Below, one piece after another: positions 1,492 through 45,382 of a DNA stretch of 50,359 nucleotides. The DNA lies in the NCBI GenBank assembly GCA_038233435.1, contig JBBSLZ010000001.1, positions 1 to 50,359 on the forward strand. Direction: 5' to 3'. Origin of the DNA: Chthoniobacterales bacterium. GTDB lineage: Bacteria > Verrucomicrobiota > Verrucomicrobiia > Chthoniobacterales > UBA10450. Below the pieces are notes generated by a model. That model was not told the origin of the DNA. It ran no database searches and saw only the letters and a list, made by a program, of their open reading frames with translations. The position numbers were made by a program, and so were the translations under genes. Positions within the stretch are counted from its first letter, which is position 1, and every line of letters begins with the position of its first letter.

Positions 1492-4400
1492 TTAACTCAA
1501 CAGCTCCTCCAAATCTTCCGTCGACAACCCGCTCATGAGCGGCTCCTCGCTTCCGATCACGCCTTCGCTCGCGCTCCGTTTCCGCTCCTGCAGCTTCGCG
1601 ATCTTCTCCTCCACCGTATCGCGCGCGATCAACTTGTAAGCCGTCACCACCCTCTTTTGCCCGATGCGATGCGCGCGATCCGTGGCCTGCGCTTCGGCGG
1701 CGTAGTTCCACCAAGGATCAAAGTGGATGACGGTGTCGGCCGCCGCGAGGTTCAAGCCGACGCCGCCGGCTTTCAAGCTCATGAGGAAGACGGGGATGGC
1801 GTCGTCGTTTTGGAATTGATCCACCACCGCCTGGCGTTCCTTCGTCCGGCCGTCAAGATAGGCGTAACGAATCTTCTGCTCCTCCAGGCGCGCGCGCAGC
1901 AGCGTAAGCATGGCGACGAATTGGCTAAAAATGAGCACGCGGTGCCCACCATCGATCGCTTCCTCCAGCAGCTCGTCGAGCAGGTCGAGCTTGGCGGAGT
2001 CTGCCCCCGTGGCGCATGCGTCCCGCTTGCGTTCCCCCGCCACGCGCAAGCGAGACGCATGCGCCACGTCCAGCAGTCGCAGGTCGCAGCAGACCTGCCG
2101 CAGGCGGAGCAATCCCACCAACATCTTCATGCGCCCCGCCCCGGCATTACCGCCAATGGTGGTCGTTAGGCCGGTTTGGATTTCGCGCAGGAGACCGTCG
2201 TAGGCTGCGCGCTGCGGCGGGGTCAGATCGCATACCACCACCTGTTCTATTTTCTCCGGCAGATCCTTCGCCACTTCCGATTTCTTGCGCCGTAAAAGGA
2301 AAGGCCGCAGCCGCCGCGCCAGTCGGCGCTGCACTTCTGGTGCGGGTCCGCGCGCGAGTGGTTGCTCGTAGCGTTCCCGGAAGTCGACCCGAATGCCCAG
2401 GTAGCCCGGCTGCACGAAATTCATCAGCGACCAAAGATCGCGCACCGAGTTTTCCATCGGCGTGCCGGTTAGGACAAAACGATGCCGCGCGCGGAGGGAA
2501 AAAGCCGCCTGCGCGTTCTGCGTATCGGGGTTTTTGATATGCTGCGCCTCATCCAGAATCGCGCTGGAGAATTGCAGGTTGTCGTAGTTTTCGGTGTCGC
2601 GTTGCAGAAGCGCGTAGCTGGTCAGCACGATCTGCGCGTCCGGGATCTCGGCGAAACGGGCGTGGCGCTCCGGTCCATCGAGCAGGAGCACGCGCAACTC
2701 CGGCGTGAAACGGCGCGCTTCGTTTTCCCAGTTGGTCAGGAGCGAGGTCGGGCAGACGATCAGCGCCGGCTCGCGGGCGGCTTGCGCGCGCAGGAACGCG
2801 AGCGTTTGCACAGTTTTCCCCAGGCCCATTTCGTCCGCGAGGATGCCGCCGAGATTGTTGCGCGCGAGGCGGACAAGCCATTCCACGCCTAGACGCTGAT
2901 AATCGCGCAGCTTCTCGTCGAGATCGCCGAGCGCGAGGTCGCCGACCGGTTTCTGCGTGGTCAAGCCGCGCAAGGCGGCGCCCATATCCTGCGCCGTTTC
3001 CGCAAGGTAAGCGGCGTGGCTGCGCGCGATGCGATAGGTGCCGGGCTGGCTTTGGCGTGGATCACAATCGCGCAAGACCTCTTCAAAATCCGAAATCGCA
3101 TCCGAGTCGAAAACGGCGGTGCGACCGCTACGCAGCCGGGTTTTGCTTTGGCCCGAGCGGAGCAGGCGCTGGAGCTCGGTGGCGGAAAACATCTCGCCAT
3201 CGGCGGTGCCGAGCGAGTAGCGCAGCTCGAACCAATCGGTCCCGGAACCGACTACCTCCATCTTCGGAGTGAGCGGTTGCAGATCGCCGCTCGCCTTGGT
3301 TGCAGTGGCGGAGAGATGGACTTCCCACTCCTGCTCCAGGCGCGGGCGTTGAAAGGCGAAGAAGCGCGCGATCTGATCTTCGTCCTGCAGAATAAAGCGG
3401 TCGCCGCGTGTGCCGAAACCAAGCGCGCGGAGGCGCGTCACGGCGGCCACTTCGGCCGATGTATCGCGGAGAAGGATGGCGTCGTCGCTCGCCTCGCGGA
3501 CGAAGGCCGATTCGTCCTTCCGCGGCTCGGCGCTCAGCCGATGCGCCGCGTTCGCATACCTGGCGGATAACTCGCCGCGCAACTCCCGGAGGGAGCCTTC
3601 GAGATTAAGCACGAATTTCGGCGTGGCAAAGCGCACCTCCGGCAGGACGAAATCGCTTTCGACGACAAACCAGGCGGCGAGCCGCGGGGCCGTGGCAATC
3701 AGAAACTTCTGCGCGCTCTCACCGCGCCAGGTGATGCCGCCTTCGGCCAGCGCCCGCAGCTCACCCGGCAGATTTTCGGCCAACGGGAGGAAGGAAGCGT
3801 CGCGAAAGATCCACGCTTCTTCCTCAGCGACGAGCAGCCGCTCCTCGCCCGCGGCGGCCAGCTCCATCGTCACCGAAGAAGAATCAGCGCGCTTCAAGTA
3901 CAGCCGCGGCTGGAAAATTTCGGTCGCGATGCGCGCCGCTTTCGTCTTGCCAAAGGTGACGCGGGGATGCCCGCGCAAGCGGCCGAGCAGGCGGAGAAAA
4001 TCCGGCCGCGAGAAGGTGCGCATCGCGTCGACGCGGCTGAGTTCATCGAGGGCGGCCAGATCGTGCGCATCGCAGGCGTAGGTCTCGTTAGGCGAGAGCG
4101 TCGCCGGCATCGCGCGCTGGCCGTTTCGCTCCACTTCGGTGACGAGCATGATCTGCTTTTGCGACCAGGCGGATTCGAACTGGGGCGGCAGGATGAAATG
4201 GAACGCGAGGGCGGGTACGTCCGCGCTTCCGAGTTCGACAAACTTCGGCCCAGGGGCGGGTTGGCTCGCGGGGGCGGCGGAAGTCGCGCGCAGATCGTTG
4301 GAGCCGGCCCGGCCCCGGGCCGAACTCTCTTCTTGCGCACGCTTTATCCATTCCAGCCCGACCGCAAGCGAGTGCGCACAGATTTTCCCCCACTGGCGCG

Positions 4401-4626
4401 ATTCCCGACAGGTGCAGATGTTTTCGACATCGGAGAAGGTGGTCACGCGCAATCCGGAGCGCAGGGTGCGCAGTCCATCCTTGACCATCCCGGCCACGAG
4501 CGGTGGCTCGTAGCTGGCTTCGAGGACGCGCCCGGCGGCGTGCAGACTCTGGGCGGCTTTCATGGCCGGCCAGCCGCCTGCGTTTACGAGCAACTTCTGA
4601 TTAATGGGAACTGCGGCATCGGCCAT
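1492..4626 (-). CDS. SNF2-family DEAD/DEAH-box helicase with N-terminal SWIM zinc finger
   Basis: 1044-aa ORF. SWIM CxC...CxH motif (CTCRESRQWGKICAHSLAV). Helicase motif I LADEMGLGKT, motif II DEAQHIKN, and C-terminal helicase motifs (FSQF..., DPWWN, QATDRAHRIGQ). Confidence 0.9.
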   Translation of the reverse strand: MADAAVPINQKLLVNAGGWPAMKAAQSLHAAGRVLEASYEPPLVAGMVKDGLRTLRSGLRVTTFSDVENICTCRESRQWGKICAHSLAVGLEWIKRAQEESSARGRAGSNDLRATSAAPASQPAPGPKFVELGSADVPALAFHFILPPQFESAWSQKQIMLVTEVERNGQRAMPATLSPNETYACDAHDLAALDELSRVDAMRTFSRPDFLRLLGRLRGHPRVTFGKTKAARIATEIFQPRLYLKRADSSSVTMELAAAGEERLLVAEEEAWIFRDASFLPLAENLPGELRALAEGGITWRGESAQKFLIATAPRLAAWFVVESDFVLPEVRFATPKFVLNLEGSLRELRGELSARYANAAHRLSAEPRKDESAFVREASDDAILLRDTSAEVAAVTRLRALGFGTRGDRFILQDEDQIARFFAFQRPRLEQEWEVHLSATATKASGDLQPLTPKMEVVGSGTDWFELRYSLGTADGEMFSATELQRLLRSGQSKTRLRSGRTAVFDSDAISDFEEVLRDCDPRQSQPGTYRIARSHAAYLAETAQDMGAALRGLTTQKPVGDLALGDLDEKLRDYQRLGVEWLVRLARNNLGGILADEMGLGKTVQTLAFLRAQAAREPALIVCPTSLLTNWENEARRFTPELRVLLLDGPERHARFAEIPDAQIVLTSYALLQRDTENYDNLQFSSAILDEAQHIKNPDTQNAQAAFSLRARHRFVLTGTPMENSVRDLWSLMNFVQPGYLGIRVDFRERYEQPLARGPAPEVQRRLARRLRPFLLRRKKSEVAKDLPEKIEQVVVCDLTPPQRAAYDGLLREIQTGLTTTIGGNAGAGRMKMLVGLLRLRQVCCDLRLLDVAHASRLRVAGERKRDACATGADSAKLDLLDELLEEAIDGGHRVLIFSQFVAMLTLLRARLEEQKIRYAYLDGRTKERQAVVDQFQNDDAIPVFLMSLKAGGVGLNLAAADTVIHFDPWWNYAAEAQATDRAHRIGQKRVVTAYKLIARDTVEEKIAKLQERKRSASEGVIGSEEPLMSGLSTEDLEELLS

Positions 4627-9405: not shown

Positions 9406-10317
9406 GTGGGCTGCACCTTCCAGCAGCGCCGCGAGCACGAAGTGATGGACGAAGACTGGAGTGTCTCGCCTGTGACGCAGCGCCTCCGAGACAAGGCTTG
9501 GTCGCAGCTCGGCACGAGTGGAAGCGGGAACCACTTCGTCGAATTCGGCGCGTTTAAGGTAGCGCAAGCTTCCAGCTTGCTCGGGAACGACGACTGCAAG
9601 CTGGAAGCTTGCGCTACCTTGCCGCCCGGCGAATACGTGGCGCTCCTCACTCACAGCGGCTCGCGCGGGACGGGGGCCCAGGTTTGCCAGCACTACAGCC
9701 GGCTGGCGATGGAACGGCACCCGGAGTTGCCGAAAGAGCAAAAACACCTTGCCTGGCTCTCGCTCGATGAGGAAGCAGGCCAGGAATATTGGAACGCGAT
9801 GAACCTGATGGGTCACTACGCGGCGGCGAACCATGCCCTCATCCATAAACACATCGCGCGCTCGTTAGGCGCGCGCGTCGTCCTCGAGAACCATCACAAC
9901 TTCGCCTGGAAAGAGCGCCACCTGATCGCGGGCGAAGAACGCGCAGTGATCGTGCACCGTAAAGGCGCCACGCCAGCCGGCGTGGGCGTGCTCGGCATTA
10001 TCCCGGGCACAATGGCGTCGCCCGGTTTCCTCGTGCGCGGCAAAGGCCAGACCGAATCGCTCGCCAGCGCCTCGCACGGCGCGGGCCGCGTTATGAGCCG
10101 CACGAAGGCGAAGCAATCGTTTACCTGGAGCGCGGTGAAGAAGCTGCTCGCCGAGCGCGGGGTCACGCTGCTCTCCGCCGGACTCGATGAAGTGCCCGGC
10201 GTCTACAAAGACATCGACGCCGTCATGGCCGCGCAGACTGATTTGGTCGAGGTGCTCGGCCAATTCGATCCGAAGCTGGTTAAGATGTGCCCCGCCGGCG
10301 AGCGGGCGGAAGATTGA
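9406..10317 (+). pseudogene. rtcB: RtcB RNA ligase, 5'-truncated (about 110 N-terminal residues missing) with an in-frame palindromic insertion
   Basis: Conserved RtcB blocks are present: GSGNHFVEFG, HSGSRGTG, NHHNFAW, HRKGATPA, IPGTMASPGFLVRG, SASHGAGRVMSRTKAK, PGVYKDIDAVMAAQTDLVEV. GSGNHF sits at about residue 48, whereas in E. coli RtcB (from memory) it is at about 160. The N-terminal metal-binding region is therefore absent. Confidence 0.75.
9556..9620. repeat. REP doublet inside the rtcB reading frame (25-nt perfect inverted arms, 15-nt spacer)
   Basis: AAGGTAGCGCAAGCTTCCAGCTTGC at 9556-9580. Its exact reverse complement is at 9596-9620. Each arm is GTAGCG plus the hairpin GCAAGCT-tcc-AGCTTGC. 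Confidence 0.9.
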
Positions 10318-13253: not shown

Positions 13254-15065
13254 GTGTCCATGGAACGCCCTACTTATCTCGAACATTACCGCGTCATGGT
13301 GGACAGCGTCGGCGCGCCAGTGGAACTCCGGCGGAATGGCCAGCACGTCGTCTACCAGGCAGAGGATCTGCGCTCCGGACAGGAAGTGGCACTCGGCGTG
13401 ATCCGGGATTTTTCGCCGGAGAATCTTGACCGCTTGGAAGAGGAAACGCGCCGCGCGGAGCGAATCGCGCATCTTAATCTTCCCCGTATCTTGGAGGTGG
13501 GACGGGAGCCGGGCCGCGTCGTCTACGCCACCGAGAACTTCGTGGGCACGCCCGCGGAGGAATGGATCGAAGAGCACGGACCGATGCCGGTGGGCCCCGT
13601 CTTGCGGATCGGGCTCCAGGCGGTCAGCGCGCTGGGAGCGGCCACTTACCACAGCGTCTCGCATGGCGCGATCAACCCGCGCCATGTCCTCCTGGTGCCC
13701 GGCCAGACGGCGCAGGGAGATTGGCCTTTGATCAAAATTCTCGGTCTGGTGGGGCCGTTACGCAGCTTTGCCGGCTCTCAGTTTGCAGGGGAAGCGGCGG
13801 ACTTCGAGGCGCAATTCGCCAGCCCGGAACAGTGGCAGAATCGCCCGGTTGATTTCCGTTCCGAGATCTACTCGTTAGGCGCGACGCTTTGGTATCTGCT
13901 CACCGGCGCGCCGCCAGCGCCGGCAGAGGAACTCGACCGGGTGAGCGGGCTTTCGAAGCCGGTCCTGAAGTTGCTCGAGGAAATGCTGGCCCGCCCGCCC
14001 GAGGCGCGGCCGCACGATCCGGTCGCTTTCGAAGAGGAGATACGGAAGTGCCTCGATCAGGTGGAACGGCGGGCCGCGATCGGGCGGAAATTTGGGGTGC
14101 CGGCGGTGGCACCGATCGCGGTGGTGAAAAAAAGCGAGCCGCGGCCTCCTTGGACGATGGGGAGAACCCTGGCGGTGGCCGCGGTGGTGCTGCTCTTCAT
14201 GGGCCTGGGCATCTTTTTCTGGTCCGCGAATCTGCGCCCCGGTCGGTCGCTTCTTTCCAACAGCGCTCCGATTGGGGTGCCGATCGGCGTGCCGGACGCT
14301 GCGGACGCGGTAGAGGCCAAGAACGGTGCGGATCGCGTTCCTAACCGCTCGAGCACAGCGGCGGTTGATCTCGCCTCTCGCTCCGTCGCTTCCGCGACGC
14401 CAGCTGATGCTTCCGCTTCGGACATCGATTTGGTGGAGCCCTCGGCGCCGGGGGAAGGGCCGGGTGCACCGGCACGCTTAGCCCAGACCGCTCCGATGGC
14501 TCAGAGCGGTCCTTCGGTAGCGCCGGGCGCCGAACCGCCTCCTCCTCCGATCGTGGCGGAAAACGATTCGGCGGAGATTTCTTCCCTGCCCTCCGAAACG
14601 GCGGAAAATCCGATCAAGCCAGACTTTTCCAATCCGGATGTCGCTGGCCTCCCGGAGCCTTCGCAAGACACCGCGCCCGTCGTTGCGGCGGGGAGCCCAG
14701 AGAGCCAACCGGAACCGACAGCCGTAGCGGAGGTGCAAGCACCTCGTCGTCCCGAACCTGCCAGCACGCCCACTCCGGTCGTGGCGCAGCGGGCGAAGCC
14801 GGCCACGATTCAGGGATTGCCGGTGCGGCGCGCGGAGCCCATCCAGGCGGTAGATTCGGTTACGGAAATCCGGCCGATCGCGAGCCCGGAGCGCACGGGG
14901 CGGCGATTCAACGGCTTGGAAGTGCGGGCCGCGGAGCCAGCCGAAAACACGCCGGGCTTGCCGAAACGCTCGCGGCGGGCGCGCTTCCTCGGGACGACGC
15001 CGGACGGCGAGATGGTCTTCGAGTTGCCTTCGGCGGAAGAAGGCTTCGTCGCCCCGCGCCGGTAG
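13254..15065 (+). CDS. Membrane-anchored Ser/Thr-kinase-like protein with degenerate catalytic motifs (pseudokinase) and a Pro/Ala-rich C-terminal region
   Basis: 603 aa. The kinase fold is recognisable (LEHYRV..., ASPEQ, SEIYSLGATLWYLLTG). However, VAIK reads EVALGVI, HRDxKPxN reads SHGAINPRH, and DFG reads ILGLVG. One TM helix (LAVAAVVLLFMGLGIFFW) is followed by about 270 aa of low complexity. Confidence 0.8.
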   Translation: MSMERPTYLEHYRVMVDSVGAPVELRRNGQHVVYQAEDLRSGQEVALGVIRDFSPENLDRLEEETRRAERIAHLNLPRILEVGREPGRVVYATENFVGTPAEEWIEEHGPMPVGPVLRIGLQAVSALGAATYHSVSHGAINPRHVLLVPGQTAQGDWPLIKILGLVGPLRSFAGSQFAGEAADFEAQFASPEQWQNRPVDFRSEIYSLGATLWYLLTGAPPAPAEELDRVSGLSKPVLKLLEEMLARPPEARPHDPVAFEEEIRKCLDQVERRAAIGRKFGVPAVAPIAVVKKSEPRPPWTMGRTLAVAAVVLLFMGLGIFFWSANLRPGRSLLSNSAPIGVPIGVPDAADAVEAKNGADRVPNRSSTAAVDLASRSVASATPADASASDIDLVEPSAPGEGPGAPARLAQTAPMAQSGPSVAPGAEPPPPPIVAENDSAEISSLPSETAENPIKPDFSNPDVAGLPEPSQDTAPVVAAGSPESQPEPTAVAEVQAPRRPEPASTPTPVVAQRAKPATIQGLPVRRAEPIQAVDSVTEIRPIASPERTGRRFNGLEVRAAEPAENTPGLPKRSRRARFLGTTPDGEMVFELPSAEEGFVAPRR

Positions 15066-16648: not shown

Positions 16649-17194
16649 ATGAACATTCGCGACACGCTCATCTATCTTATGGCGGCCGCCGTTATGACGC
16701 CTGCATATACGTGCGGACAGGACCGCCGAAGTCAAGATTGTGACCGTCCTAAATACAAGCTAGAGATTGTCGATCAGCCAGAAAAGCTCCGCTTTCGACT
16801 GATTCTCACTTCGACAGATAACCGCGACATCTGCATACATTTCGGCATCTGGCCAGACAGCGAAGGCAGGACTGAAACCGGCCCGGATGTGTATTCGATA
16901 AGAACAGACGAGGGAATTATTTACCCTCATCCTCCGACCGTGGAGATCGACTGCTGGGATGCCGATTGCGTAACACGAGTCGGACCGGGCGAGTCGCTCA
17001 ACGGCTTTATCGCATATTCCGAGTTCGGCGACCCGAGTAAAATTAGATCGCTTCGCAAGCGCGAGCTTCGCGCCCACATCGTGCCTTCGGTGTGCGAGAG
17101 CATCACAGGAGACGGGCGGAAGAACGCCGTTCCAAGTACCGACGACCCGGAGCCGGCGTCATCGCCAAAGTCGGCGATCACGCCTAACGAGTAG
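16649..17194 (+). CDS. Hypothetical exported Cys-rich protein on a low-G+C insertion
   Basis: 181-aa ORF with a hydrophobic N-terminus (LIYLMAAAVMTPAYTCG). About 47-50% G+C in sampled lines. No family recognised. Confidence 0.5.
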   Translation: MNIRDTLIYLMAAAVMTPAYTCGQDRRSQDCDRPKYKLEIVDQPEKLRFRLILTSTDNRDICIHFGIWPDSEGRTETGPDVYSIRTDEGIIYPHPPTVEIDCWDADCVTRVGPGESLNGFIAYSEFGDPSKIRSLRKRELRAHIVPSVCESITGDGRKNAVPSTDDPEPASSPKSAITPNE

Positions 17195-17411
17195 TAGAGT
17201 TAGCGCAGCTTTGCTGCAGTAAATAACGAACGGCCCTCCTGCGCCACCGCCTTCGAACGAGACCCGGCACGCATCGCGCCAGCGCAGCACTCGTCCCCAA
17301 TCCCCTAACGAGTCCTGCACTGTCACGCTGCGTGCTTGCAAGAATCCCCGCTCCGCCCTCTGTTACGCCGGCTGCTTCCACGAGATCATACAACAGCGGT
17401 GTAGGGAATCG

Positions 17412-20149: not shown

Positions 20150-21208
20150 CTAGGGAGTAAAATCCTGGCCCGGGCTCAGTCTGGTGCAAAATGCGGCTAG
20201 CAAACGCGCCGTATTCTCCAGATCCACCAGCGAAAGCAACTCGTTAGGCGTATGCATGTAACGGAGCGGCACCGAGAGCAGCCCCGTCGCCATCCCACCG
20301 CGCGCCAGTTGCATCGCGTTCGCATCCGTCCCCGTCCCGCGCGCTGCCGGCCCCACTTGATAGGCGATGCCCTCCGCCTCCGCCGCCGCCACCAAAAGCT
20401 CGAAAACGCGCGGATTAATATTCGCTCCCCGCGCGATGATCGGCCCGCCCCCGATCCGGAAGTCGCCCGCGCGCTTCTTCTCGATCCCGGGCGTATCCGT
20501 CCCGTGCGCCACATCGAGCGCGATCCCCACCTCCGCCTCGCTCGCAAAAGCGCTCGTCTGCGCGCCGCGCAACCCGATTTCCTCCTGCACCGTCGCCACC
20601 CCGATCACGCACGCCTCGAAGACCTGCTGCTGGAGCAACCGCAACACCTCCGTCACGATCCACGTCCCCATCTTGTTATCGAACGCCATCGAGACTGCGT
20701 GCTCATTGGCCAACTCCAGATACGGCTGCAGAAAAACGCCCGCGTCCCCCAGGCTGACCAACTCCAGCGCCGCCGCCTTGCTCGAGACGCCGAGGTCGAT
20801 GTAAAGGTCGTGCATCTTCGGCACCTTCTTCTTGTCCTCCTCGTCCATCAGATGGATCGCCTTCCGCCCGATCACGCCCGGGAGCAGGCCCGCGCGGGTC
20901 ATGATCGAGACGCGTTGCGAAGTGGCCACCACCGGGTCCACCCCGCCGATCGGTTCCAAATGCACGAACCCATCCTCCGTAATGTAATTAACGATGAACC
21001 CGATCTGATCGCAGTGCCCGGCGAGCATGATCCGCGGCCGCCCGTTTGGTTGCCGCGTCCCGAAGACATTCCCCATCACATCCGTGCGCACCTCATCGCA
21101 CCATGGCGCGATCCGGGCCCGGACCAGCCTCTGCACTTCGTGCTCGTAACCCGACGGGCTCGCCGTCTCGACCAGTCGTTTCAAAAAATCTTTACTCTCG
21201 GAATTCAT
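20150..21208 (-). CDS. M42-family metallopeptidase (glutamyl aminopeptidase / FrvX type)
   Basis: 352 aa. MGNVFG...PRIMLAGHCDQIGFIVNYITEDGFVHLEPIGGVD and VQEEIGLRGA are typical of M42. Confidence 0.85.
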   Translation of the reverse strand: MNSESKDFLKRLVETASPSGYEHEVQRLVRARIAPWCDEVRTDVMGNVFGTRQPNGRPRIMLAGHCDQIGFIVNYITEDGFVHLEPIGGVDPVVATSQRVSIMTRAGLLPGVIGRKAIHLMDEEDKKKVPKMHDLYIDLGVSSKAAALELVSLGDAGVFLQPYLELANEHAVSMAFDNKMGTWIVTEVLRLLQQQVFEACVIGVATVQEEIGLRGAQTSAFASEAEVGIALDVAHGTDTPGIEKKRAGDFRIGGGPIIARGANINPRVFELLVAAAEAEGIAYQVGPAARGTGTDANAMQLARGGMATGLLSVPLRYMHTPNELLSLVDLENTARLLAAFCTRLSPGQDFTP

Positions 21209-21957: not shown

Positions 21958-21976
21958 CGGGCGGTTTCTGTAGTCG

Positions 21977-24632: not shown

Positions 24633-25279
24633 AATCGCAGCACCAGCATGACGGCGAAGTAGAGCATGAGCAGCGCCGTCAGAGCCTGGGTGGCGATCTG
24701 CCAGCTCGGCCGCGCGAAGATGCGGGCGCCGAGTTTGATCGCGGTCGCGAAAACGAATCCCCAGGTGATCGCACCGAACAAGACCGCGCCCGCCAAAAGC
24801 AACGCGTTCCAGAGAGAACCACCGAGCCGCCCGCTTTGGCTGCCGATGACCGCGAGCCAGAAACCGATGTTCCACGGGCTGGTCAGCGCGAGGGTAAACC
24901 CTAGCAGGTAACCGGGCAGCGCACGTTTCCTCTGCGGCACTTCGGCGGTCTGCGCCGGGCTGTGCCGATCCCGCCAGGCGCGCCAGGCGCCGCGCAGAAA
25001 AACGCTGGCCAGGAAAAGGAGCAAACCCAGGCTGATCAATCCCAGGACGACCCGCACCCGCGGCGTGTTGATGAGGGCGCCCGCGCCTAACGAGACGCCG
25101 AGCGCCCAGAGCCCATCGCCGGTGCAGGCGCCGAGGCCGACGCGCCACGCGGGCCAGAAGCCGCCCCCGGCGGCCGGCGGGAGCAGACCGCGCCGCATCA
25201 TCTCGGCATTGATCGGGCCGGGCGGCCAGGCGACCGACCAGCCGAGCAGGAAACCCTGGAAGAGCAGGGCAGAGTTCAT
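24626..25279 (-). CDS. LysE/RhtB-family translocator
   Basis: 217 aa and about 6 TM helices. N-terminus FLLGWSVAWPPGPINAEMMRRGL is typical of the LysE family. Its ATG overlaps the stop of the upstream lpxL-like gene (ATGA). Confidence 0.8.
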   Translation of the reverse strand: MNSALLFQGFLLGWSVAWPPGPINAEMMRRGLLPPAAGGGFWPAWRVGLGACTGDGLWALGVSLGAGALINTPRVRVVLGLISLGLLLFLASVFLRGAWRAWRDRHSPAQTAEVPQRKRALPGYLLGFTLALTSPWNIGFWLAVIGSQSGRLGGSLWNALLLAGAVLFGAITWGFVFATAIKLGARIFARPSWQIATQALTALLMLYFAVMLVLRLG

Positions 25280-26652
25280 CCCCGGTGCGCGATGTTCGCC
25301 CCGATGCTGTGGGCGATTTTCAGGTGCGCGCTGATCGCATCGGAATTCTCCGAAGCGGGGACGGGCTGCTGATTATAAAAGAAGGAAACCCAGCCGTGTT
25401 TCCGTCCCACCCGGAGAGGGATGCCGGCCAGCGCGACCGCGCAGGCTGGTTTCCAGCGCGGCTCGAAGAAGATGGCCACGTCGAAACGGGCGGCGTTTTG
25501 GATCAGCTGGCGGAGCGCGAGGGGCGAGCTCTCGGGCGGATATTCGATCACGGTGTTCACCTCCGGCGCTTCGCGCCAGATTTGCGCGACGGGGCCGGGC
25601 GCGAGGACGGCGAGCCAGGTATCGGGCCGGCCTTCCTGGATGGCGCGCATCGCCGGAAGGGCGGCGGCGGCCAGCGCGGCCGTATCGGGCGAGACAATCA
25701 GGATGCGGAAGGGATCAAGGGTGCTGCGATCGAACTCCGGGGGAAAGAAGACGCGGCGTTGATCGCGCGCAAAGAGGATGTGCGGACGGAGCGGTTTCCA
25801 GCGGTTGTGCGCCCAGAGCCAATCGGCGGGATGGCGGCGGATTTGTTCTTCGAGGAGACGGTTAATTCGGGCGGTGAAGGCTTCAGTGTCGCCGTCTTCG
25901 GGAGGGAAGACGGGCTCGGAGATGGTCATTTTCCAACGGGCGTGGCCGACGGTGTTAATCGCGATCGGCACCACCGGATGCCCGCTCCGCAGGGAAAGAG
26001 TGGCCGCGAGGGTAGAAGAGGAAGTGAGCCGGCCGAAGAGCGGCGTCCAAAGCCCCGCGTAGCCGGCCCCCTGGTCGATCAAAACGCCGACGACTCCCCC
26101 TTCGCGCAGAAAGCGGACGCACTTCAGTAACTCGGTGCGTCGATCAAAGAGGATGTTCCCCGAACCCGCGCGAGTGCGGCGCAGATAACGATCGATGTAG
26201 GGATTGGCCAACCCCTGAAAGATGGCGCTGAAGCGATACTCCGGAAATCGGCCGCCGAGGTGACTGAAAAGTTCCCAATTCCCAATGTGACTGATGAGCG
26301 CCACCCAGCCATTTTCCAGACGCTCGGTGGGCAGGTTGGCGGTGACGCACTCCCAGACAGCGTCATCGGACATGCGGGCCGCTTTCAGGCCGGCGATAAG
26401 ATTGGCGCCGAGGAGTTGGAAATGTTCGCGGTTGAGGTCGCGGAGTTGGACCTCGGACATTTCGGATCCGAAGGCGAGGCGAAGATTATTGAGCGCGAGG
26501 CGGCGGCGCTTCCAGAAGAGGTGATAAAAGATGCCGCCACCGAATTGGCCTAACGAAAAGGCCACCCCGATGGGGAGAAAATGGATCAAGCCTTCGCAGA
26601 GCCGAAAGAACAGGTAAGGAACGAAATAGAAAAGGCGAAAGACCACGGCCAT
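25276..26652 (-). CDS. lpxL: Lipid A late acyltransferase (LpxL/HtrB family) fused to the N-terminal half of a GT9 (heptosyltransferase-like) domain
   Basis: About 458 aa from ATG 26652. The N-terminal 300 aa look like a lysophospholipid/lauroyl acyltransferase (TM anchor, LALNNLRLAF, ISHIGNWE, VGVLIDQ). The C-terminal 160 aa (ILIVSPDTAALAAAALPAMRAIQEGRPDTWLAVLAPGPVAQIW...FDVAIFFE...AGIPLRVG) look like a GT9 N-domain. No nucleotide-sugar-binding half follows. Confidence 0.7.
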   Translation of the reverse strand: MAVVFRLFYFVPYLFFRLCEGLIHFLPIGVAFSLGQFGGGIFYHLFWKRRRLALNNLRLAFGSEMSEVQLRDLNREHFQLLGANLIAGLKAARMSDDAVWECVTANLPTERLENGWVALISHIGNWELFSHLGGRFPEYRFSAIFQGLANPYIDRYLRRTRAGSGNILFDRRTELLKCVRFLREGGVVGVLIDQGAGYAGLWTPLFGRLTSSSTLAATLSLRSGHPVVPIAINTVGHARWKMTISEPVFPPEDGDTEAFTARINRLLEEQIRRHPADWLWAHNRWKPLRPHILFARDQRRVFFPPEFDRSTLDPFRILIVSPDTAALAAAALPAMRAIQEGRPDTWLAVLAPGPVAQIWREAPEVNTVIEYPPESSPLALRQLIQNAARFDVAIFFEPRWKPACAVALAGIPLRVGRKHGWVSFFYNQQPVPASENSDAISAHLKIAHSIGANIAHRG

Positions 26653-31842: not shown

Positions 31843-31941
31843 GCGAATTCGTTTACTCTTCGGCCCGGTCGCGGGCCGACTCCAACGAAAGCGGCAACTT
31901 CAGGTCGATCAAACAGTGTTAGTTGCTCGTTAGGCAAATCA

Positions 31942-32053
31942 GGGTAGGGACGGCGCGCTGCGCCGTCCAGGCCGCGTGGCCCGCTCTTGATCTTGCGCAC
32001 TTCCCAAACTCGCCCAAGCACCCCCTGGTCGCCGCAGCGCGGCAACCCTACCC
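31942..32053. repeat. REP doublet
   Basis: GGGTAGGGACGGCGCGCTGCGCCGTCCAGGCCGCGTGG at 31942-31979. The inverted unit CCTGGTCGCCGCAGCGCGGCAACCCTACCC is at 32024-32053. Confidence 0.85.
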
Positions 32054-32056: not shown

Positions 32057-32896
32057 CTAGCCGATTACATCGACCGGCTCTGTCAATTGCACGCCCCGCG
32101 CGTGCAGCGGTGTCACATCGCTCTCCCGTGGCTCGCGCGTAAAACCGCGCCGCGATCCGCGCACGAACTGAATCAAGTGCGAGACGTTTGCGTCCTCCAG
32201 GCGCGCCATATCCTGCAGGGCCGTCTCAAGCGGAAGCATGGAGCGTAGGAGCAAATGGCAGGCGCGTTTCAAATTCATCCGTGTCTCCGCCGTAAACCCG
32301 GCCCGCCGCAGGCCGACCGTATTCAAGCCACGCACGCGGCACGGGTTCCCATCCGAAATCAGGAACGGGAGGACGTCCTGCACGATTTTCGCCTTCGCGC
32401 CCACCATCGAGTAGCGTCCCAGCCTAACGAATTGATGGACGCCCACTTCATTGGAAAGAAAGACGTGATCCTCCACCGTAATGTGACCGGCGAGGGCGGT
32501 GCCATTGGCAAAAATGCAGTGATCGCCCATGACGCAGTTGTGCGCGACGTGGACGCCGATCATGATGAAGTTCCTCGAACCCACATGCGTCACCTGATCT
32601 TCTCCCGTCGCGCGATGGATGGTCACGTTCTCGCGGATCATGTTTTCGTCGCCGATCAGGAGGTGGCTGCGTTCCCCGCGGAATTTCACATCCTGCGGCT
32701 CGCCCCCGAGCGTGGCGTGCTCGAAGACCCGGTTCCCTTGCCCGAGGGTGGTGAAGCGTTTGATGACCGCATGGGCGCCGATCTGGCAGCCAGCGCCGAT
32801 CCGAACGTCATCTTCGACAATGACATAGGGCCCAATCTCGACCCCAGACGCGATCTCGGCACGGGGACTGATCACAGCTGTCGGATGAATGGCCAC
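32057..32896 (-). CDS. lpxA: Acyl-ACP--UDP-N-acetylglucosamine O-acyltransferase
   Basis: 279 aa with hexapeptide repeats. IHPTAVISPRAEIASGVEIGPYVIVEDDVRIG...LGGEPQDVKFRGE...IGDENMIRENVTIHRAT aligns block for block with E. coli LpxA (from memory). Confidence 0.9.
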   Translation of the reverse strand: MAIHPTAVISPRAEIASGVEIGPYVIVEDDVRIGAGCQIGAHAVIKRFTTLGQGNRVFEHATLGGEPQDVKFRGERSHLLIGDENMIRENVTIHRATGEDQVTHVGSRNFIMIGVHVAHNCVMGDHCIFANGTALAGHITVEDHVFLSNEVGVHQFVRLGRYSMVGAKAKIVQDVLPFLISDGNPCRVRGLNTVGLRRAGFTAETRMNLKRACHLLLRSMLPLETALQDMARLEDANVSHLIQFVRGSRRGFTREPRESDVTPLHARGVQLTEPVDVIG

Positions 32897-34088
32897 TCGT
32901 AGCCAAGGTAGTTATTTTCCATCATTGGTAAACAAGAAGCTAAAACGCGTGAAAATCGGCCTTCTCCTGGAACAGTTCGAGCCCAGCCGCGGCGGGCTGG
33001 AACATTGGACGTGGCAATACGCGCACGCCCTGCGGGCACGCGGCCAGGAAGTGCACGTGGTCGCGTTCACTTTTGCCAAGGGCCTGGAAGGCAGCGGGCT
33101 GGTGCTTCATCCGATGGGGGAAAGGCCGCGTTCTCGGCTGGAACGCGCCGAAGTGATCGCGGCGCATCTGCCTTCGTTAGGCCTCGACCTCACTCACGAT
33201 ATGGGCATCGGCTGGCAGGCCGATATCATTCATCCGCATGGCGGCTCCACCAGGGCGCTTTGGGAGCACAACCTTTTACGCATCCCGCGCTGGCGGCAGA
33301 TCCGCTTCTGGCGGGAGCGCCGCTATCGGGAGCTGGCGGAACTGGAACGCCGCCAGCATACCCGGAGCGAAGCGGTCGTAGTTGCAGTCTCTGAAATGGT
33401 GCGGCGGCATTTTGAAACTTGGCACCACCTCCCACCGGCACGCTTGCGCGTCATCCCGAACGGGGTCGACGTGGCGCACTTTACTCCTACGCATCGCCAG
33501 CGCTGGCGGGCCGGAGAGCGAGCGAAGCTGGGAGTCAAAGAGGAGGAAGTGCTTTACCTCATGCTGGCCCATAATCTTTTGCTCAAAAACGCCGAGGCTT
33601 TCCTGCGCGCCGCCGCCTGCCTCGTTAGGTCGGGCGCTCCCGCGCGAGTCTTGATTGCCGGAGGAAAAAAGACGGAATCTTTTGTTAGGCTGAGCAAGCA
33701 GTTAGGGATGGCTGCGGCGGTCACTTTTACCGGAGTGGTCGAGCCCATCCCGCTCTATGCAGCCGCGGATGTTTTTGTTCATCCCACCTGGTACGACCCT
33801 TGCAGCCTGGTCACGCTGGAAGCTGCGGCCTCCGGTTTGCCGGTCATCACCACTCGTTACAACGGCGCCGCCGAGTTCATGACGGACGGGGAAGATGGAT
33901 ACGTGCTCGATGATCCCGCGGACTTCGTGACCCTGGCGGCCCGGATGGAAGAGCTGCTCGAACCCGCGCGCCGCCAGGCGATGGGCACAGCCGGCCGCTC
34001 CATGGCGGAGCGGCATACCTTCGCCCAGCAAACCACCCAGTTCCTCGAACTCTACGCGGACGTGATCGCGGCGCGCTCCGCGCCGTAA
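32889..34088 (+). CDS. GT4-family glycosyltransferase
   Basis: 399-aa ORF. The true start may be GTG at about 32949 (VKIGLLLEQFEPSRGGLEHW). C-terminal GT1-fold motif: FVHPTWYDPCSLVTLEAAASGLPVITTRYNGAAEF. Confidence 0.8.
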   Translation: MATRSQGSYFPSLVNKKLKRVKIGLLLEQFEPSRGGLEHWTWQYAHALRARGQEVHVVAFTFAKGLEGSGLVLHPMGERPRSRLERAEVIAAHLPSLGLDLTHDMGIGWQADIIHPHGGSTRALWEHNLLRIPRWRQIRFWRERRYRELAELERRQHTRSEAVVVAVSEMVRRHFETWHHLPPARLRVIPNGVDVAHFTPTHRQRWRAGERAKLGVKEEEVLYLMLAHNLLLKNAEAFLRAAACLVRSGAPARVLIAGGKKTESFVRLSKQLGMAAAVTFTGVVEPIPLYAAADVFVHPTWYDPCSLVTLEAAASGLPVITTRYNGAAEFMTDGEDGYVLDDPADFVTLAARMEELLEPARRQAMGTAGRSMAERHTFAQQTTQFLELYADVIAARSAP

Positions 34089-40250: not shown

Positions 40251-40766
40251 ATGAACGAGCCATCTCCAGCGTCACCCTTCGGCCCAAGGGCGGGCCGACT
40301 CCATTCCGCCAGCGAAGAAGTTTGTCGCGCGCGCGCCGAGGTGATAAGAGCGAGGGACCGCGAAAGAATCACGATGCTTACGCCCCCACCGGACCCCACT
40401 TCCGTGGAAAAGATCGCCACCTGGATCCGCGACGCGGCCACCGCGGATTCGTGGCAACCCGGCCACCATCTCCGCCCACCTTCCGGCGCCATGATGCTCG
40501 ATCTTCACCACGGCCCCATCCAGACCGCTTTGCAGCGCGCCCGGCGAAAAACTTTCGTCAAAATTGCGAAACCATTTCGCCGTTTCTTTCGCAATCAGGG
40601 CGCGGTCAATGACAGCATCCTCGAAGCGCTTCATCACCTCGCCCTTCAGAACGAAGAGCTGATCGAGGAGATCGGCCAACTGCGCGATGATCTCCGGCAG
40701 CTACGCCGCCGGAGCGGCTCGGCGCCGAAGGTTGAAAACGAGGCCGAGCCGGAATGCGAGTCGTAA
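40251..40766 (+). CDS. Hypothetical protein with a C-terminal coiled-coil-like segment
   Basis: 171-aa ORF, with an alternative start at MLTPPPDP. The tail reads LALQNEELIEEIGQLRDDLRQLRR. It overlaps the next gene by 13 nt. No family recognised. Confidence 0.45.
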   Translation: MNEPSPASPFGPRAGRLHSASEEVCRARAEVIRARDRERITMLTPPPDPTSVEKIATWIRDAATADSWQPGHHLRPPSGAMMLDLHHGPIQTALQRARRKTFVKIAKPFRRFFRNQGAVNDSILEALHHLALQNEELIEEIGQLRDDLRQLRRRSGSAPKVENEAEPECES

Positions 40767-41803
40767 TCGCCACGGTGCGGACGCCGTTTATCTACGGCGG
40801 CGCCGAGGTGCATGCGGATGGTCTGTTGAAAGCGCTCCTCGCCGCCGGCCATCAGGCGGACGTGGTCGCGCTCCCGTTTAATCCGAGCGAGGCGGACCGC
40901 ATTCCCGATCAGATGCTGGCCTGCCGGCTCTGGGATTTACGCGAGATCGATGGCGTGCCGGTGGATCGTTTGATCGCGCTGAAATTCCCCGCCTACCTCA
41001 TTCCGCATCCGCAAAAAGTGATCTGGCTCCTGCATCAACACCGCGCCGCCTACGATCTCTGGGAGCACGCGCTCGGCGGGCTGCGGGCTGCGCCGCGCGG
41101 GCGGATGGTGCGGGAGATGATTCAACGGGCCGATCGCCAGATGGGCGATGAGACCCGCGCCATTTTCGCCAACTCGGGGAACGTGGCGCGCCGGTTGCGA
41201 GACTTCTGCGGAGTCGACTCAGAGCCGCTCTATCATCCACCGGCGGAGGCGGAGTCGTTCTATTGCGCGGAGACGGTCGAAGATTATCTGCTCTATCCGA
41301 GCCGCCTTTCGCCCACGAAGCGGCAGGATCTCGTCATCCGGGCGCTCGCCCTAACGAGTGCGCCGGTGCGGATAAAACTGGCCGGCACGCCGGATAATCC
41401 CTCTTACGGCGAGAGCCTGCAACGGCTGGCGCGGGAGCTGGGCTTGGCTGGGCGGATCGAGTGGCTGGGATTTCTGACCGAACCGCAAAAACGCGAGGCC
41501 TACGCCCGCGCCCGCGGCGTCCTCTTTCCACCGCTGGATGAGGATTACGGCTACGTGACCCTGGAGGCAATGCTGGCTTCAAAGCCCGTCATCACCTGCA
41601 CGGATTCGGGCGGGCCGCTCGAATTTGTCCTCCATCAGAAAACAGGCTGGGTGGCGCCGCCGGAACCGGAAGCGCTCGCGGCCGCGATGGACGCGCTCTG
41701 GCAAAATCCCGAGGCCGCGCAGCGCTACGGGCGGGAAGCGCGGCGGCATTATGACGAGATGAATCTCTCCTGGTCGCACGTGGTGAAGACGCTCCTGGCA
41801 TGA
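40754..41803 (+). CDS. GT4-family glycosyltransferase
   Basis: 349 aa. MRVVIATVRTPFIYGGAEVHADGL N-terminus and C-terminal LFPPLDEDYGYVTLEAMLASKPVITCTDSGGPLEF. Confidence 0.8.
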   Translation: MRVVIATVRTPFIYGGAEVHADGLLKALLAAGHQADVVALPFNPSEADRIPDQMLACRLWDLREIDGVPVDRLIALKFPAYLIPHPQKVIWLLHQHRAAYDLWEHALGGLRAAPRGRMVREMIQRADRQMGDETRAIFANSGNVARRLRDFCGVDSEPLYHPPAEAESFYCAETVEDYLLYPSRLSPTKRQDLVIRALALTSAPVRIKLAGTPDNPSYGESLQRLARELGLAGRIEWLGFLTEPQKREAYARARGVLFPPLDEDYGYVTLEAMLASKPVITCTDSGGPLEFVLHQKTGWVAPPEPEALAAAMDALWQNPEAAQRYGREARRHYDEMNLSWSHVVKTLLA

Positions 41804-43183: not shown

Positions 43184-45382
43184 ATGAAAAAATTTGCCCT
43201 GTTTGCTCTCGCCCTTGCGTGGGGCCTACGCCTAACGAGCGCTCAAGAAGCAGTTTCACCGGCGCCCAGCGCCAGTCCCAGCCCAGCGAAGACAGCCACC
43301 ACCGAACGCGTCATTGTCACCGCCGGCGCGATCGAACACAGCGAGACCGAAACCGTGGAACCGGTGTCGGTCCTCAACGGGCAAGACCTGAAACGTGAAG
43401 CCGGCGCCACCCTGGGCGACACCTTGCGCGATCAGCCCGGCGTGGCTGCGAGCGGTTTCACGGCGGGTGCGAGCCGACCCGTCATCCGCGGCCTGGCCGA
43501 CAACCGCGTCCGTGTTTTGAATAACGGCACGGAAGTCTTCGACGTTTCGAATCTGAGCCCGGATCACGCCCCCAGCGTGAGTCCGCTCCTCGCTACGAGC
43601 ATCGAAGTGGTGCGCGGCCCGGCCACGATCCTTTACGGCTCCGGCGCGATCGGCGGCGTGGTGAATGTGAACGACAACCGCATTCCCGTGGAAGCGCCCT
43701 CCAACCCGTTCGGAGGCGAACTGGTCGGTCGTTACGGCTCGGTCGATGACGAACGCAGCGGCGCGCTTTCCCTACAGATCGCGCCCACTCCGCATCTCGT
43801 CTTCCATCTCGATGGCTCGATTATCCGCACCGACAATCGCGAAATTCCAGGCTTCGCCTTGAGCGAACGGCTGCGGAATCAATTGTCGCCCGAAACGGCG
43901 GCCGGGCGCGGCTTCGGCCAGAACCCGGAAGGCGAAGTGCCGAACACCTTTGTGCGCACGAAAGAGTACGGCGTGGGTGCGTCGTACGTTCGGGAGAAAG
44001 GCTACTTCGGCGCGTCGTTTAGCCAGTTTCTCTCCATCTACGGTGTGCCGGCGAATCCCGATGCGGTCGTCGCGGGCGAGATTCCGGCGCGGGTAAAACT
44101 GGATGTCGATAAACGCCAGTGGAACGTGCGCAGCTCGATCGTAGATCCTTTCCGCGGGATTCATAATGCCAACTTCAAACTCGTTTATACCGACTATCAA
44201 CATCAGGAGATCGATGACGGCGACGTGGGCTCGATCTTTAAAACCAGCGGGATCGATTCCCGCCTCGAAGCGGTGCATGAGCCGATTGGGCCACTGGAGG
44301 GATCGTTTGGCGGGCAGGTCTTCTTCAAGAAGCTTTCCATCCTCGGCGACGAAGCTTTTCTGCAACCGACGGAGACGTTGCAGCTCGCCGGCTTTCTTTT
44401 TGAAGAAGCGCATTTTGCTTCCGTGCGGTTGCAGGCGGGCGTGCGAGTCGAGCACGACGATGTCAAAATCAATTCGAGCGATCCCGATCTCACTTCGCTC
44501 ACATCGCCGAGCCAGAAGCAGCGCGACTTTCTCCCGGTCAGCGCGGCGGTCGGTTTGATCTACGAATTCGCGCGCGATTACCGGCTGGCGGTCAACGCCA
44601 GCTTCTCGCAACGCGCGCCGACCGCGGAGGAGCTTTTCGCCCGCGGACCGCACGATGCGACCTTCCAGTTCATCGTCGGGAATCCGAATCTTGATCTGGA
44701 AACGAGCCGCGGGGTTGATGTTTCATTGCGGAAAGAGAACGGCGTTGTCACCGGCAGTTTGAGCGGCTTTTACACTCGCTTTAGCGACTTCATCGACTTT
44801 ACGCCCACAGCCGAATTCGAAAACGATCTCCGCGTTTTCGTTTACACGCCGAAGACGGCGGAGTTTTACGGCGGCGAAGCGCAAGTGCAGTTTCATTTGC
44901 TGCCGCTTACGTTGGCAAGCGACCCGCAGGCGTCCGCACCTAACGATCCGAAATCGGTCAAAAGCATGATCACGGGCGAGCCCGCGGAAACGCACAAAAA
45001 TCCGAACGATCTCTTCCTCGATCTGCGCGCGGATTACGTGCACGCGCAGGACCTGGACCAGAACGAACCGTTGCCGCGGATCACGCCCCTGCGCTACAGC
45101 GCGTCGCTCAATTACCGGAGCGAGAAATGGGAAGGGAAGATCGAAGTCCAGCGGGTCGCTTCACAGGATCGGATCGCGCAATTCGAAACGCCGACGGACG
45201 GCTACACGTTTCTAAACGCGAGTGTGGGCTACAACTTCCGTGTCGGCCCGACCTTCGTGAATCTGTACCTGCGCGGGACGAACCTGACGAACGAAGAAGC
45301 GCGTGATCATCTTTCCTTTTTGAAGGAAGCACTGCCGCTCGCAGGTCGGAGCGTGCTGGTCGGACTTCGCACGACGTTCTAG
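43184..45382 (+). CDS. TonB-dependent outer-membrane receptor (ZnuD-like plug motifs)
   Basis: 732 aa with AGGAG 6 nt upstream and a signal peptide. Plug: RPVIRGLADNRVRVLNNGTEVFDVSNLSPDHA. C-terminal beta-barrel ending ...VLVGLRTTF. Confidence 0.85.
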   Translation: MKKFALFALALAWGLRLTSAQEAVSPAPSASPSPAKTATTERVIVTAGAIEHSETETVEPVSVLNGQDLKREAGATLGDTLRDQPGVAASGFTAGASRPVIRGLADNRVRVLNNGTEVFDVSNLSPDHAPSVSPLLATSIEVVRGPATILYGSGAIGGVVNVNDNRIPVEAPSNPFGGELVGRYGSVDDERSGALSLQIAPTPHLVFHLDGSIIRTDNREIPGFALSERLRNQLSPETAAGRGFGQNPEGEVPNTFVRTKEYGVGASYVREKGYFGASFSQFLSIYGVPANPDAVVAGEIPARVKLDVDKRQWNVRSSIVDPFRGIHNANFKLVYTDYQHQEIDDGDVGSIFKTSGIDSRLEAVHEPIGPLEGSFGGQVFFKKLSILGDEAFLQPTETLQLAGFLFEEAHFASVRLQAGVRVEHDDVKINSSDPDLTSLTSPSQKQRDFLPVSAAVGLIYEFARDYRLAVNASFSQRAPTAEELFARGPHDATFQFIVGNPNLDLETSRGVDVSLRKENGVVTGSLSGFYTRFSDFIDFTPTAEFENDLRVFVYTPKTAEFYGGEAQVQFHLLPLTLASDPQASAPNDPKSVKSMITGEPAETHKNPNDLFLDLRADYVHAQDLDQNEPLPRITPLRYSASLNYRSEKWEGKIEVQRVASQDRIAQFETPTDGYTFLNASVGYNFRVGPTFVNLYLRGTNLTNEEARDHLSFLKEALPLAGRSVLVGLRTTF

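Follow-up and report, generated by a model that had tools for sequence, protein, structure and literature searches.

A hyper-abundant nine-base word resembling DNA uptake sequences in a family of soil Chthoniobacterales

To our knowledge, words that tag self DNA for uptake have to date been described only in the Neisseria and Haemophilus families. The USS of the Pasteurellaceae, for which the minor pilin ComN is the predicted receptor, has a non-palindromic 9-bp core that recurs hundreds to thousands of times, is used equally on both strands, lies mostly within genes in frames that avoid stop codons, overrides codon choice and sometimes residue choice, is common to the whole family, and occurs in more perfect copies than one-off variants. 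The DUS of the Neisseriaceae (GCCGTCTGAA and its dialects), bound by the minor pilin ComP, is a family-restricted hyper-abundant word without replication polarity, whose density ranges widely between species and which is sparse in DNA whose atypical composition marks it as probably acquired. Inverted-repeat terminator pairs are common in both but do not define the class. HIP1 (GCGATCGC) of cyanobacteria is likewise a short word of very high abundance, which a large clade has conserved within its genes and whose function is debated. Chi, KOPS and architecture-imparting sequences are over-represented oligomers read by DNA-processing proteins. A comparative preprint ascribes uptake sequences to two proteobacterial families whose members mostly live with animal hosts (10.1101/2025.10.24.684340).

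Here we describe the 9-mer TCGTTAGGC from an uncultured soil bacterium of the Chthoniobacterales (Verrucomicrobiota; genome G000, 3.25 Mb), which shares the above properties of the USS, the DUS and HIP1, a likeness read from genome sequence. Unlike the USS, it has an unrelated sequence, belongs to an unrelated phylum, has no AT-rich flanking segments and forms few terminator-type inverted pairs. Unlike the DUS, it has no dialects, the same 9-mer recurring in all genera sampled, and is far less often intergenic or part of inverted-repeat terminators. A HIP1-type methylation word was considered and is not supported: HIP1 is a palindrome and a methyltransferase target, whereas TCGTTAGGC is asymmetric and linked to no methyltransferase, the C5-methyltransferase genes of the family being sporadic and not tracking the motif. 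Chi and KOPS are strongly co-oriented with replication and only a few-fold in excess, in contrast to the 52:48 orientation of TCGTTAGGC relative to GC skew. A search of the literature found no report of this word.

Abundance, orientation and reading of the word

The window, that is, the whole stretch of 50,359 nucleotides analysed, contains 12 exact copies of TCGTTAGGC, against 0.20 ± 0.47 expected from shuffled sequences, all at the coordinates and on the strands given in a preliminary description of this DNA. The context reported there is also correct: all 17 occurrences of CGTTAGG in the window are immediately preceded by T, and 8 of the 12 exact copies by CT. Genome-wide, TCGTTAGGC is the most over-represented 9-mer, with 425 copies compared to 10.4 expected under the order-3 Markov model that had been proposed as the decisive yardstick, an excess of ~40-fold over chance. 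Models of orders 0 to 4 expect only 10–25 copies, and the order-7 expectation of 406 carries no information, since nearly all occurrences of the 8-mer sub-words belong to the motif itself. The second proposed way of refuting the signal, a recently duplicated block, is contradicted by the flanks, which comprise 424 distinct 59-mers for the 425 copies and lack any extended common sequence, so that a dispersed REP/MITE repeat was likewise rejected; information content drops to about 0 beyond the 9-mer. Separate REP/MITE-like families exist in the genome, for example GCCTGTGCTAC inverted pairs and an element of roughly 110 bp.

The copies are distributed nearly evenly between the plus and minus strands (224 and 201), between the two orientations relative to GC skew (221 and 206), and, within genes, between sense and antisense (169 and 156), while adjacent copies point the same way in 101 cases and opposite ways in 102. 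A polar motif of the Chi/KOPS type is therefore rejected, with neither co-orientation with replication nor correlation between neighbours, and its exclusion, first proposed from the window, holds genome-wide and family-wide. Spacing is somewhat more even than random (coefficient of variation of the gaps 0.88 versus 1.02 ± 0.075), with 4 pairs of copies less than 200 bp apart where 10.9 are expected. Copies fall in each of the four frames free of stops, on two strands, and 42 of them provide a gene with its TAG or TAA stop codon. The commonest reading is Ser-Leu-Gly, a tripeptide that is itself only about 13% above expectation, yet is written TCG-TTA-GGC in 127 of 488 cases (2.2 expected); TTA, which accounts for 3% of leucine codons, is found in 26% of these tripeptides. 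Similarly, Pro-Asn-(Glu/Asp) is written CCT-AAC in 112 of 240 instances, against 13 expected. Frame use and this overriding of codon choice bear out, genome-wide and family-wide, the initial suggestion that the signal lies in the DNA rather than in the protein. Terminator-type inverted-repeat pairs are rare, and spacers centred on the motif fold no better than random ones (−19.5 versus −21.1 kcal/mol).

The motif is more fully written T[C/T]GTTAGG[C/G], in which position 8 is partly free and an A directly 5′ is weakly disfavoured; in the densest genome, G088, the flanks show only weak A at −2, C/T at −1 and purines at +1 to +3. One-off variants at strict positions reach 0.2–0.8 of expectation, whereas the perfect word exceeds it 32- to 175-fold, a scarcity that fits the draining of one-off sites into perfect copies. 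The C-to-T variant at position 2, TTGTTAGGC, is 17-fold enriched (77 versus 4.6 expected), whereas its mirror product TCATTAGGC is not (4 versus 8 expected), a pattern that looks like recognition tolerance rather than deamination or repair.

Kept and renewed sites

Orthologue comparisons, suggested in the preliminary description, reveal that sites of TCGTTAGGC are both kept and renewed, some being invariant at the DNA level and others lineage-specific. Two plus-strand copies lie antisense in an SNF2-family helicase gene (1492-4626, minus strand). The copy at 2163..2171, read GGC CTA ACG ACC (G-L-T-T), has the motif in the same alignment column in 7 of 18 family orthologues; at 4085..4093, read TCG CCT AAC GAG (S-P-N-E), 11 of the 18 keep the 9-mer unchanged, at protein identities as low as 61%, while the flanking codons vary synonymously. 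Synonymous CTC-to-TTA recoding is seen in four scattered lineages, and the two Roseibacillus SNF2 loci contain no copy. The minus-strand copy at 32422..32430, sense in frame +1 of ORF 32057-32896 (minus) and read TTC GTT AGG CTG (F-V-R-L), is matched by the motif at the corresponding site of the orthologues from G016 and G012, but not of those from G015 or G003.

Three of the sense Ser-Leu-Gly copies are lineage-specific. At 25085..25093 (minus; ORF 24626-25279, minus), the orthologous positions are GCCGAGGGA in G005 and GCCGAGCGC in G010; at 26548..26556 (minus), in a lipid-A-acyltransferase-family gene (25276-26721, minus), 3–5 of the 9 bases differ in four same-genus orthologues; and at 33174..33182 (plus; ORF 32889-34088, plus), where the orthologues have GCGCTGCAG, ACCTTGCGG and similar sequences, the motif alters amino acids. 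Two further sense Ser-Leu-Gly copies are found at 9862..9870 (plus; TCG TTA GGC; ORF 9406-10317, plus) and 13872..13880 (plus; ORF 13254-15065, plus). Antisense copies are present at 20241..20249 (plus) in an M42 peptidase gene (20150-21208, minus), read ACG CCT AAC GAG (T-P-N-E), and at 43230..43238 (minus) in ORF 43184-45382 (plus), read CGC CTA ACG AGC (R-L-T-S). The intergenic copy at 31927..31935 (plus) directly adjoins a REP-like element (31942-32053), and no terminator-like site was found near it. The copy at 17182..17190 (minus) reads T-P-N-E-stop at the end of a candidate ORF, 16649-17194 (plus), which the gene caller did not call, making the copy intergenic by that call. The original tally of readings thus stands, with five Ser-Leu-Gly, two Leu-Thr, one Phe-Val-Arg-Leu and one intergenic copy, together with Pro-Asn-Glu at 4085 and 20241, and at 17182 if that ORF is real.

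Five 8-mer variants accompany the exact copies: TCGTTAGG is followed by G, a tolerated base at position 9, at 17304..17311 (minus, intergenic), and by T at 21974..21981 (plus, intergenic) and 33622..33629 (plus, ORF 32889-34088); two others lie antisense at 41350..41357 (minus) in a GT4 glycosyltransferase gene (40754-41803) and at 44939..44946 (minus) in ORF 43184-45382, the latter read P-N-D.

Distribution across the family

TCGTTAGGC is enriched in most of the 36 sampled genera of one Chthoniobacterales family, about 26 of which carry it at at least three times the level of the control word in a hand tally of the first genome of each genus. Across the family, density ranges from 0.005 to 1.35 copies per kb, with up to 4,336 copies per genome, the maximum being reached in G088, where the excess is 175-fold in a 391-kb sample. 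The spread exceeds 100-fold between genera and is 17-fold within a genus, several genera being at background with otherwise similar genomes. No dialect was seen across the 36 genera, nor any replacement word in the low-density genomes, and in 16 genomes from 15 sister families of the order the word is at background only.

An 18-kb glycan island with 58.6% GC contains zero copies, and in G088, stretches at a distance of over 1.6 kb from the nearest copy have a GC3 of 66% versus 72% elsewhere; DNA without the motif is compositionally atypical and probably acquired. GC and GC3 rise locally and symmetrically around copies, a rise that is ambiguous because GC1 rises too, not GC3 alone. A bona fide phage head-and-tail module (terminase gpA, lambda-type portal, S49 protease, capsid and tail fibre) with host-like GC carries 9 copies in 12.1 kb (0.74 per kb).

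An uptake-type self tag and its alternatives

With middling confidence, we propose that TCGTTAGGC tags self DNA throughout the family, as the DUS and USS do in theirs, and was spread by biased transformation. This reading fits best because length, copy number, strand symmetry, restriction to one family and the presence of competence genes all match. The size of the excess, the unique flanks, the use of all frames, the overridden codon choice, the mixture of kept and renewed sites, the atypical composition of motif-free DNA and the scarcity of one-off variants speak for it as well. Among the three alternatives offered in the preliminary description, the uptake type is accordingly retained, whereas Vsr/Dcm-type methylation or repair is not. 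Under the proposed mechanism, double-stranded DNA containing the word would be bound by part of the type IV pilus/ComEA/ComEC machinery at the surface or in the periplasm, and fragments bearing the word would be taken up and recombined more often than fragments without it. A mutation creating a perfect copy would then be over-transmitted through the population (molecular drive), and copies would build up wherever the DNA tolerates them, through synonymous recoding and at weakly constrained residues, stop codons and spacers, while newly acquired DNA would still be without them.

The search for competence genes called for at the outset recovered ComEC, DprA, a ComEA-like HHH_3 protein, four secretins and about 17 prepilin-like ORFs in G000, and PilM in five of five relatives tested. 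These genes are permissive evidence only, because motif-poor genera also have them: ComEC is present there too, and the ComEA-like HHH_3 protein is present in G063 (13 copies), yet was not found in G059 (852 copies). Pilin C-terminal domains proved too variable to track, and, in a further difference from the DUS, no ComP-like receptor was recognised. We know of no report of natural transformation in this family of uncultured metagenome-assembled genomes. The non-discriminating competence genes, the rare inverted pairs, the absent dialects and the ambiguous GC rise all count against uptake, as does the phage module, whose copies uptake drive could explain only for a prophage that had long been resident.

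We give a modest chance to the word being, instead, the mark of a hitherto unknown intracellular system with which this abundant soil family reads double-stranded DNA. It could be a self tag controlling a nuclease or recombination machine and copied by resident phages, or a self-propagating conversion centred on the word, which the symmetric local GC3 rise would fit. In the first form, which we think unlikely, TCGTTAGGC would be a genome-wide recognition tag for a cytoplasmic system, such as a self mark tempering a family-specific nuclease, helicase or defence system, or a non-polar loading site for recombination or repair; selection, not uptake drive, would keep the copies spread over resident DNA, and phages would acquire the word by mimicry. 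The copy-rich phage module at host-like GC, the somewhat even spacing, the retention of an identical word family-wide and the conservation of some sites at the DNA level are consistent with such a tag, but the density spread between and within genera is hard to square with a function needing a set site density, orientation bias is absent, unlike in Chi or KOPS, and no candidate reader protein was identified.

Very doubtful, in our view, is an origin in a sequence-specific mutation, mismatch-repair or gene-conversion bias that turns near-cognates into the perfect word, like an extreme very-short-patch repair, which would act on any DNA replicating in the cells and leave the word with no need of a function. 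The depletion of one-off variants alongside enrichment of the perfect word, the word-bearing phage module and the symmetric GC/GC3 rise, the pattern expected of a conversion focus, all agree with it; however, we know of no repair system with a 9-bp specificity or a 40- to 175-fold excess. Its Vsr/Dcm form is unsupported, as Vsr and C5-methyltransferase genes are sporadic, occurring both in motif-rich G088 and in motif-poor G073 but found neither in motif-rich G140 nor in G000, and as the position-2 T variant is enriched, whereas very-short-patch repair predicts its depletion. Finally, an excess arising secondarily from composition or codon usage, or from a protein motif, dispersed repeat or MITE, to which the REP/MITE-like families and the prevalence of Ser-Leu-Gly might point, has next to no probability, being refuted by the low-order Markov expectations, the unique flanks, the use of four frames on two strands, and the TTA excess within a tripeptide that is itself barely enriched.

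If the uptake-type reading is true, TCGTTAGGC is a third, unrelated uptake-like word, in an uncultured family of soil Verrucomicrobia, and self-preferring natural transformation, or another form of self-DNA recognition, is at work in soil bacteria of a different phylum. Its nine bases would serve as a marker by which metagenomic contigs, and possibly phages, could be assigned to the family. The 100-fold natural range of density, together with motif-free genera in the same family, permits comparisons for which Neisseria and Haemophilus give no scope, usable for finding the receptor and for testing how such words arise and decay.

Copy number and shape of the word

The nine-base word TCGTTAGGC (distinct from TGTCGATCTT, which has no part in the evidence here) occurs exactly 12 times in the window, at 2163, 4085, 9862, 13872, 20241, 31927 and 33174 on the forward strand and at 17182, 25085, 26548, 32422 and 43230 on the reverse, just as listed in the preliminary description, compared with 0.20 ± 0.47 copies in dinucleotide-preserving shuffles. 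All 17 copies of CGTTAGG in the window are preceded by T, and 8 of the 12 exact words by CT. The excess holds for the whole source genome, G000 (3.25 Mb in 364 contigs, 61.5% G+C, the window being contig 1), which contains 425 copies, split 224 to 201 between the strands, against 10.4 expected under an order-3 Markov model; orders 0 to 4 predict 10 to 25 copies, and TCGTTAGGC is the top over-represented 9-mer of the genome. An order-7 model predicts 406 copies, a figure without information since the sub-words of eight bases are found almost solely within TCGTTAGGC.

The suggestion that the copies do not belong to a duplicated block was borne out, with distinct 25-nt flanks for 424 of the 425 copies in G000. 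Information content beyond the nine bases is approximately zero, save for a weak 'not A' immediately 5' of the word. TCGTTAGGC is therefore a discrete word and not part of a repeat element, a source that the unique flanks rule out. Positions 1 and 3–7 are strict, and one-off variants there reach only 0.2 to 0.8 of the expected number. Position 8 is free in part, and G is tolerated at position 9, as is T at position 2 (77 copies versus 4.6 expected). The mirror product of deamination, TCATTAGGC, shows no enrichment in G000 (4 versus 8 expected), so that T at position 2 seems to reflect tolerant recognition and not CpG decay.

Repeats of other kinds are also present. Sequence GCCTGTGCTAC has 76 copies in G000, in inverted pairs ~100 nt apart in spacers (in the window at 20007–20112, 21292–21302 and 47609–47725), an arrangement suggestive of the termini of another, MITE/REP-like family that has no relation to TCGTTAGGC. 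A REP-like element of ~110 bp (window positions 31942–32053, 15061–15168 and 24519–24631), corresponding to repeats previously described as 'GTAG-headed', has many BLAST-detected copies on G000 contigs and in genomes of the same genus. Islands of GTTAG do not occur in G000.

Coding context and turnover of the sites

The preliminary description placed the signal at the level of DNA rather than protein, and the genome agrees: all four open frames, counted over the two orientations, are used, and codon choice is overridden. In G000, with genes called by our own codon-usage ORF caller, 169 copies within genes are sense and 156 antisense, the four stop-free frames hold 127, 42, 63 and 93 copies, a further 42 supply the stop codon of a gene (TAG or TAA), and ~58 lie outside genes altogether, a fraction near that of non-coding DNA in the genome. 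Of the 488 Ser-Leu-Gly tripeptides, 127 are spelled TCG-TTA-GGC where codon usage predicts 2.2, TTA making up only 3% of Leu codons; likewise, CCT-AAC is used in 112 of 240 Pro-Asn-[Glu/Asp] tripeptides (13 expected). The excess of the peptides themselves is modest (Ser-Leu-Gly +13%, Pro-Asn-Glu +44%), and in this low-density genome TCGTTAGGC mostly recodes compatible peptides. Within the window, the earlier frame tally stands for five Ser-Leu-Gly, two Leu-Thr, one Phe-Val-Arg-Leu and one intergenic copy; among the three Pro-Asn-Glu readings, those at 4085 and 20241 hold, and the third, at 17182, does so solely if the ORF at 16649–17194 is a real gene. By our gene calls, G000 uses TGA, TAG and TAA as stops 917, 856 and 723 times, respectively, and only 27 of the TAG stops are owed to TCGTTAGGC; a TAG share of ~34% is unusually high for a bacterium of 61% GC.

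The SNF2 helicase gene, which carries the sites at 2163 and 4085, has orthologues in uncultured Chthoniobacterales (Verrucomicrobiota) from soil, and 18 of them from the family were aligned with two Roseibacillus outgroups, whose SNF2 loci contain zero copies of TCGTTAGGC. At 4085 (Ser-Pro-Asn-Glu), the 9-mer is invariant in 11 orthologues with protein identity down to 61%, while the flanking codons vary synonymously across the same identity range; the site at 2163 is common to 7 orthologues. Within a conserved RYSLGT peptide, CTC has changed to TTA, a rare codon two synonymous changes away, in four scattered lineages. Nucleotide identity among genomes of the same genus is only ~73%; two of them share the site at 32422, and the sites at 25085, 26548 and 33174, together with the 8-mer variant at 33622, are lineage-specific, the orthologous positions differing at 3–5 bases and in amino acids. 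From the invariant and the lineage-specific sites together it follows that TCGTTAGGC is maintained at the DNA level while new copies are continually created.

Distribution, orientation and local composition

Enrichment is seen in each of the 24 genomes sampled from the same genus (138 to 2,291 copies) and in most genera among the 151 genomes and 36 genera sampled from the family. The maximum is found in G088, with 4,336 copies in 3.2 Mb (1.35 per kb); a 391-kb sample of this genome (457 copies, 175-fold excess) shows a core unchanged from that in G000, with only weak flank preferences and roughly equal use of the four open frames. Four genera (g22, g29, g39 and g49) are at background, a level exemplified by G063 (13 copies in 2.9 Mb), and so are 16 genomes that represent 15 further families of the order (1 to 19 copies). 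No replacement word of the kind that dialects would bring was detected in ~100–200 kb each of the motif-poor G063 and G078 and the low-density G002 and G145, and in the samples of the latter two TCGTTAGGC is still 10- to 18-fold enriched. The G145 sample (C1:1000001-1200000) also contains 20 copies of GACAACTGG and 15 of TTACACGGC in 200 kb, both ~17-fold enriched and perhaps pieces of a repeat or a further word, and G063 has palindrome-like repeats AGCTAGGAGCT and AATTAGGAA (8–10 copies per 91 kb), probably REP-type elements.

A polar Chi- or KOPS-like role, already doubted from the window, is rejected: relative to the strong contig GC skew of G000 (5th and 95th percentiles −0.15 and +0.19) the copies divide 221:206, their orientation is unrelated to that of genes, and adjacent copies have the same orientation in 101 cases and opposite in 102. 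On a 222-kb contiguous contig of the high-density relative G140 the split is 48:61. The GC skew is much weaker on that contig than in G000, whose skew shows no correlation with the orientation of genes (rho 0.13). Copies in G000 are spaced a little more evenly than chance would give (coefficient of variation of gaps 0.88 versus 1.02 ± 0.075), with 4 pairs less than 200 bp apart versus 10.9 expected. Terminator-like inverted pairs were sought and are rare.

Although the word is relatively AT-rich, its density in G000 is about fivefold higher in the highest-GC than in the lowest-GC genes. On the G140 contig, the two longest stretches free of TCGTTAGGC correspond to an 18-kb glycan-synthesis island (58.6% GC) and a 14-kb respiratory operon. 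In three genomes, GC content is ~2 points higher within 100 bp of a copy, symmetrically, and decays over 1–3 kb, a rise not seen around control words of the same composition; it affects GC3 (+1.8 points in a within-gene test, p = 0.002) and GC1, not GC2. This pattern is suggestive of either a recombination or conversion focus or a tendency of copies to settle in long-resident DNA under weak constraint. Since GC1 rises as well as GC3, the GC increase, although real, is not counted as proof of recombination by way of GC-biased gene conversion.

Candidate explanations

Uptake sequences, 9–10 nt long and present in hundreds to thousands of copies, are described for two families, Neisseriaceae and Pasteurellaceae, with ComP and the predicted ComN as receptors (10.1101/2025.10.24.684340). 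TCGTTAGGC resembles them in length, copy number and restriction to a family, and differs in that dialects are lacking, terminator pairs are few, and both sequence and phylum are unrelated. Full-text literature searches returned neither a bacterial report of the word nor any account of uptake sequences in Verrucomicrobia. We prefer to see in TCGTTAGGC a putative self tag of the DNA-uptake type, which would spread by biased transformation, and give this reading about an even chance of being correct.

G000 does encode the competence genes proposed as a check: ComEC, DprA, a ComEA-like HHH_3 protein and four secretins, alongside numerous prepilin-like ORFs. All five relatives tested have PilM, and ComEC is almost universal (142 of 151 family genomes); ComEA-like HHH_3 and PilM do not track TCGTTAGGC density, and none of the competence genes examined separates motif-rich from motif-poor lineages. 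A receptor search with two pilin-like proteins of G000 revealed conservation confined to the N-terminal helix. Three family genomes in which TCGTTAGGC is sparse to moderately dense (G005:C12:409293-409950, G045:C9:459447-460251 and G082:C31:14735-15728; 195, 318 and 131 copies, respectively) have the ComEC domain in two adjacent pieces, which may reflect a frameshift or a pseudogene.

Searches for HK97 capsid and portal genes of prophages in five high-density genomes gave no matches, and the 34 matches of an IMG/VR scan for close direct pairs of TCGTTAGGC were all chance pairs in unrelated DNA. The inverted-pair scan yielded one real phage contig, IMGVR_UViG_3300036819_000104 (12,120 bp, 60.8% GC), with 9 dispersed copies and a lambda-like head-and-tail module (gpA terminase, lambda-type portal, S49 protease, capsid and tail fibre). 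These copies would fit a temperate phage of long residence that is subject to uptake drive, and equally favour mechanisms acting on any intracellular DNA. A self tag read by another protein ranks second and seems to us rather unlikely. Sequence-specific conversion or repair bias is less probable still; its Vsr/Dcm (Vsr/C5-methyltransferase) form fails because those genes turn up sporadically, with no correspondence to TCGTTAGGC. The contig is probably a (pro)phage of the TCGTTAGGC-bearing family, and the word may therefore serve as a marker for assigning phages to their hosts.
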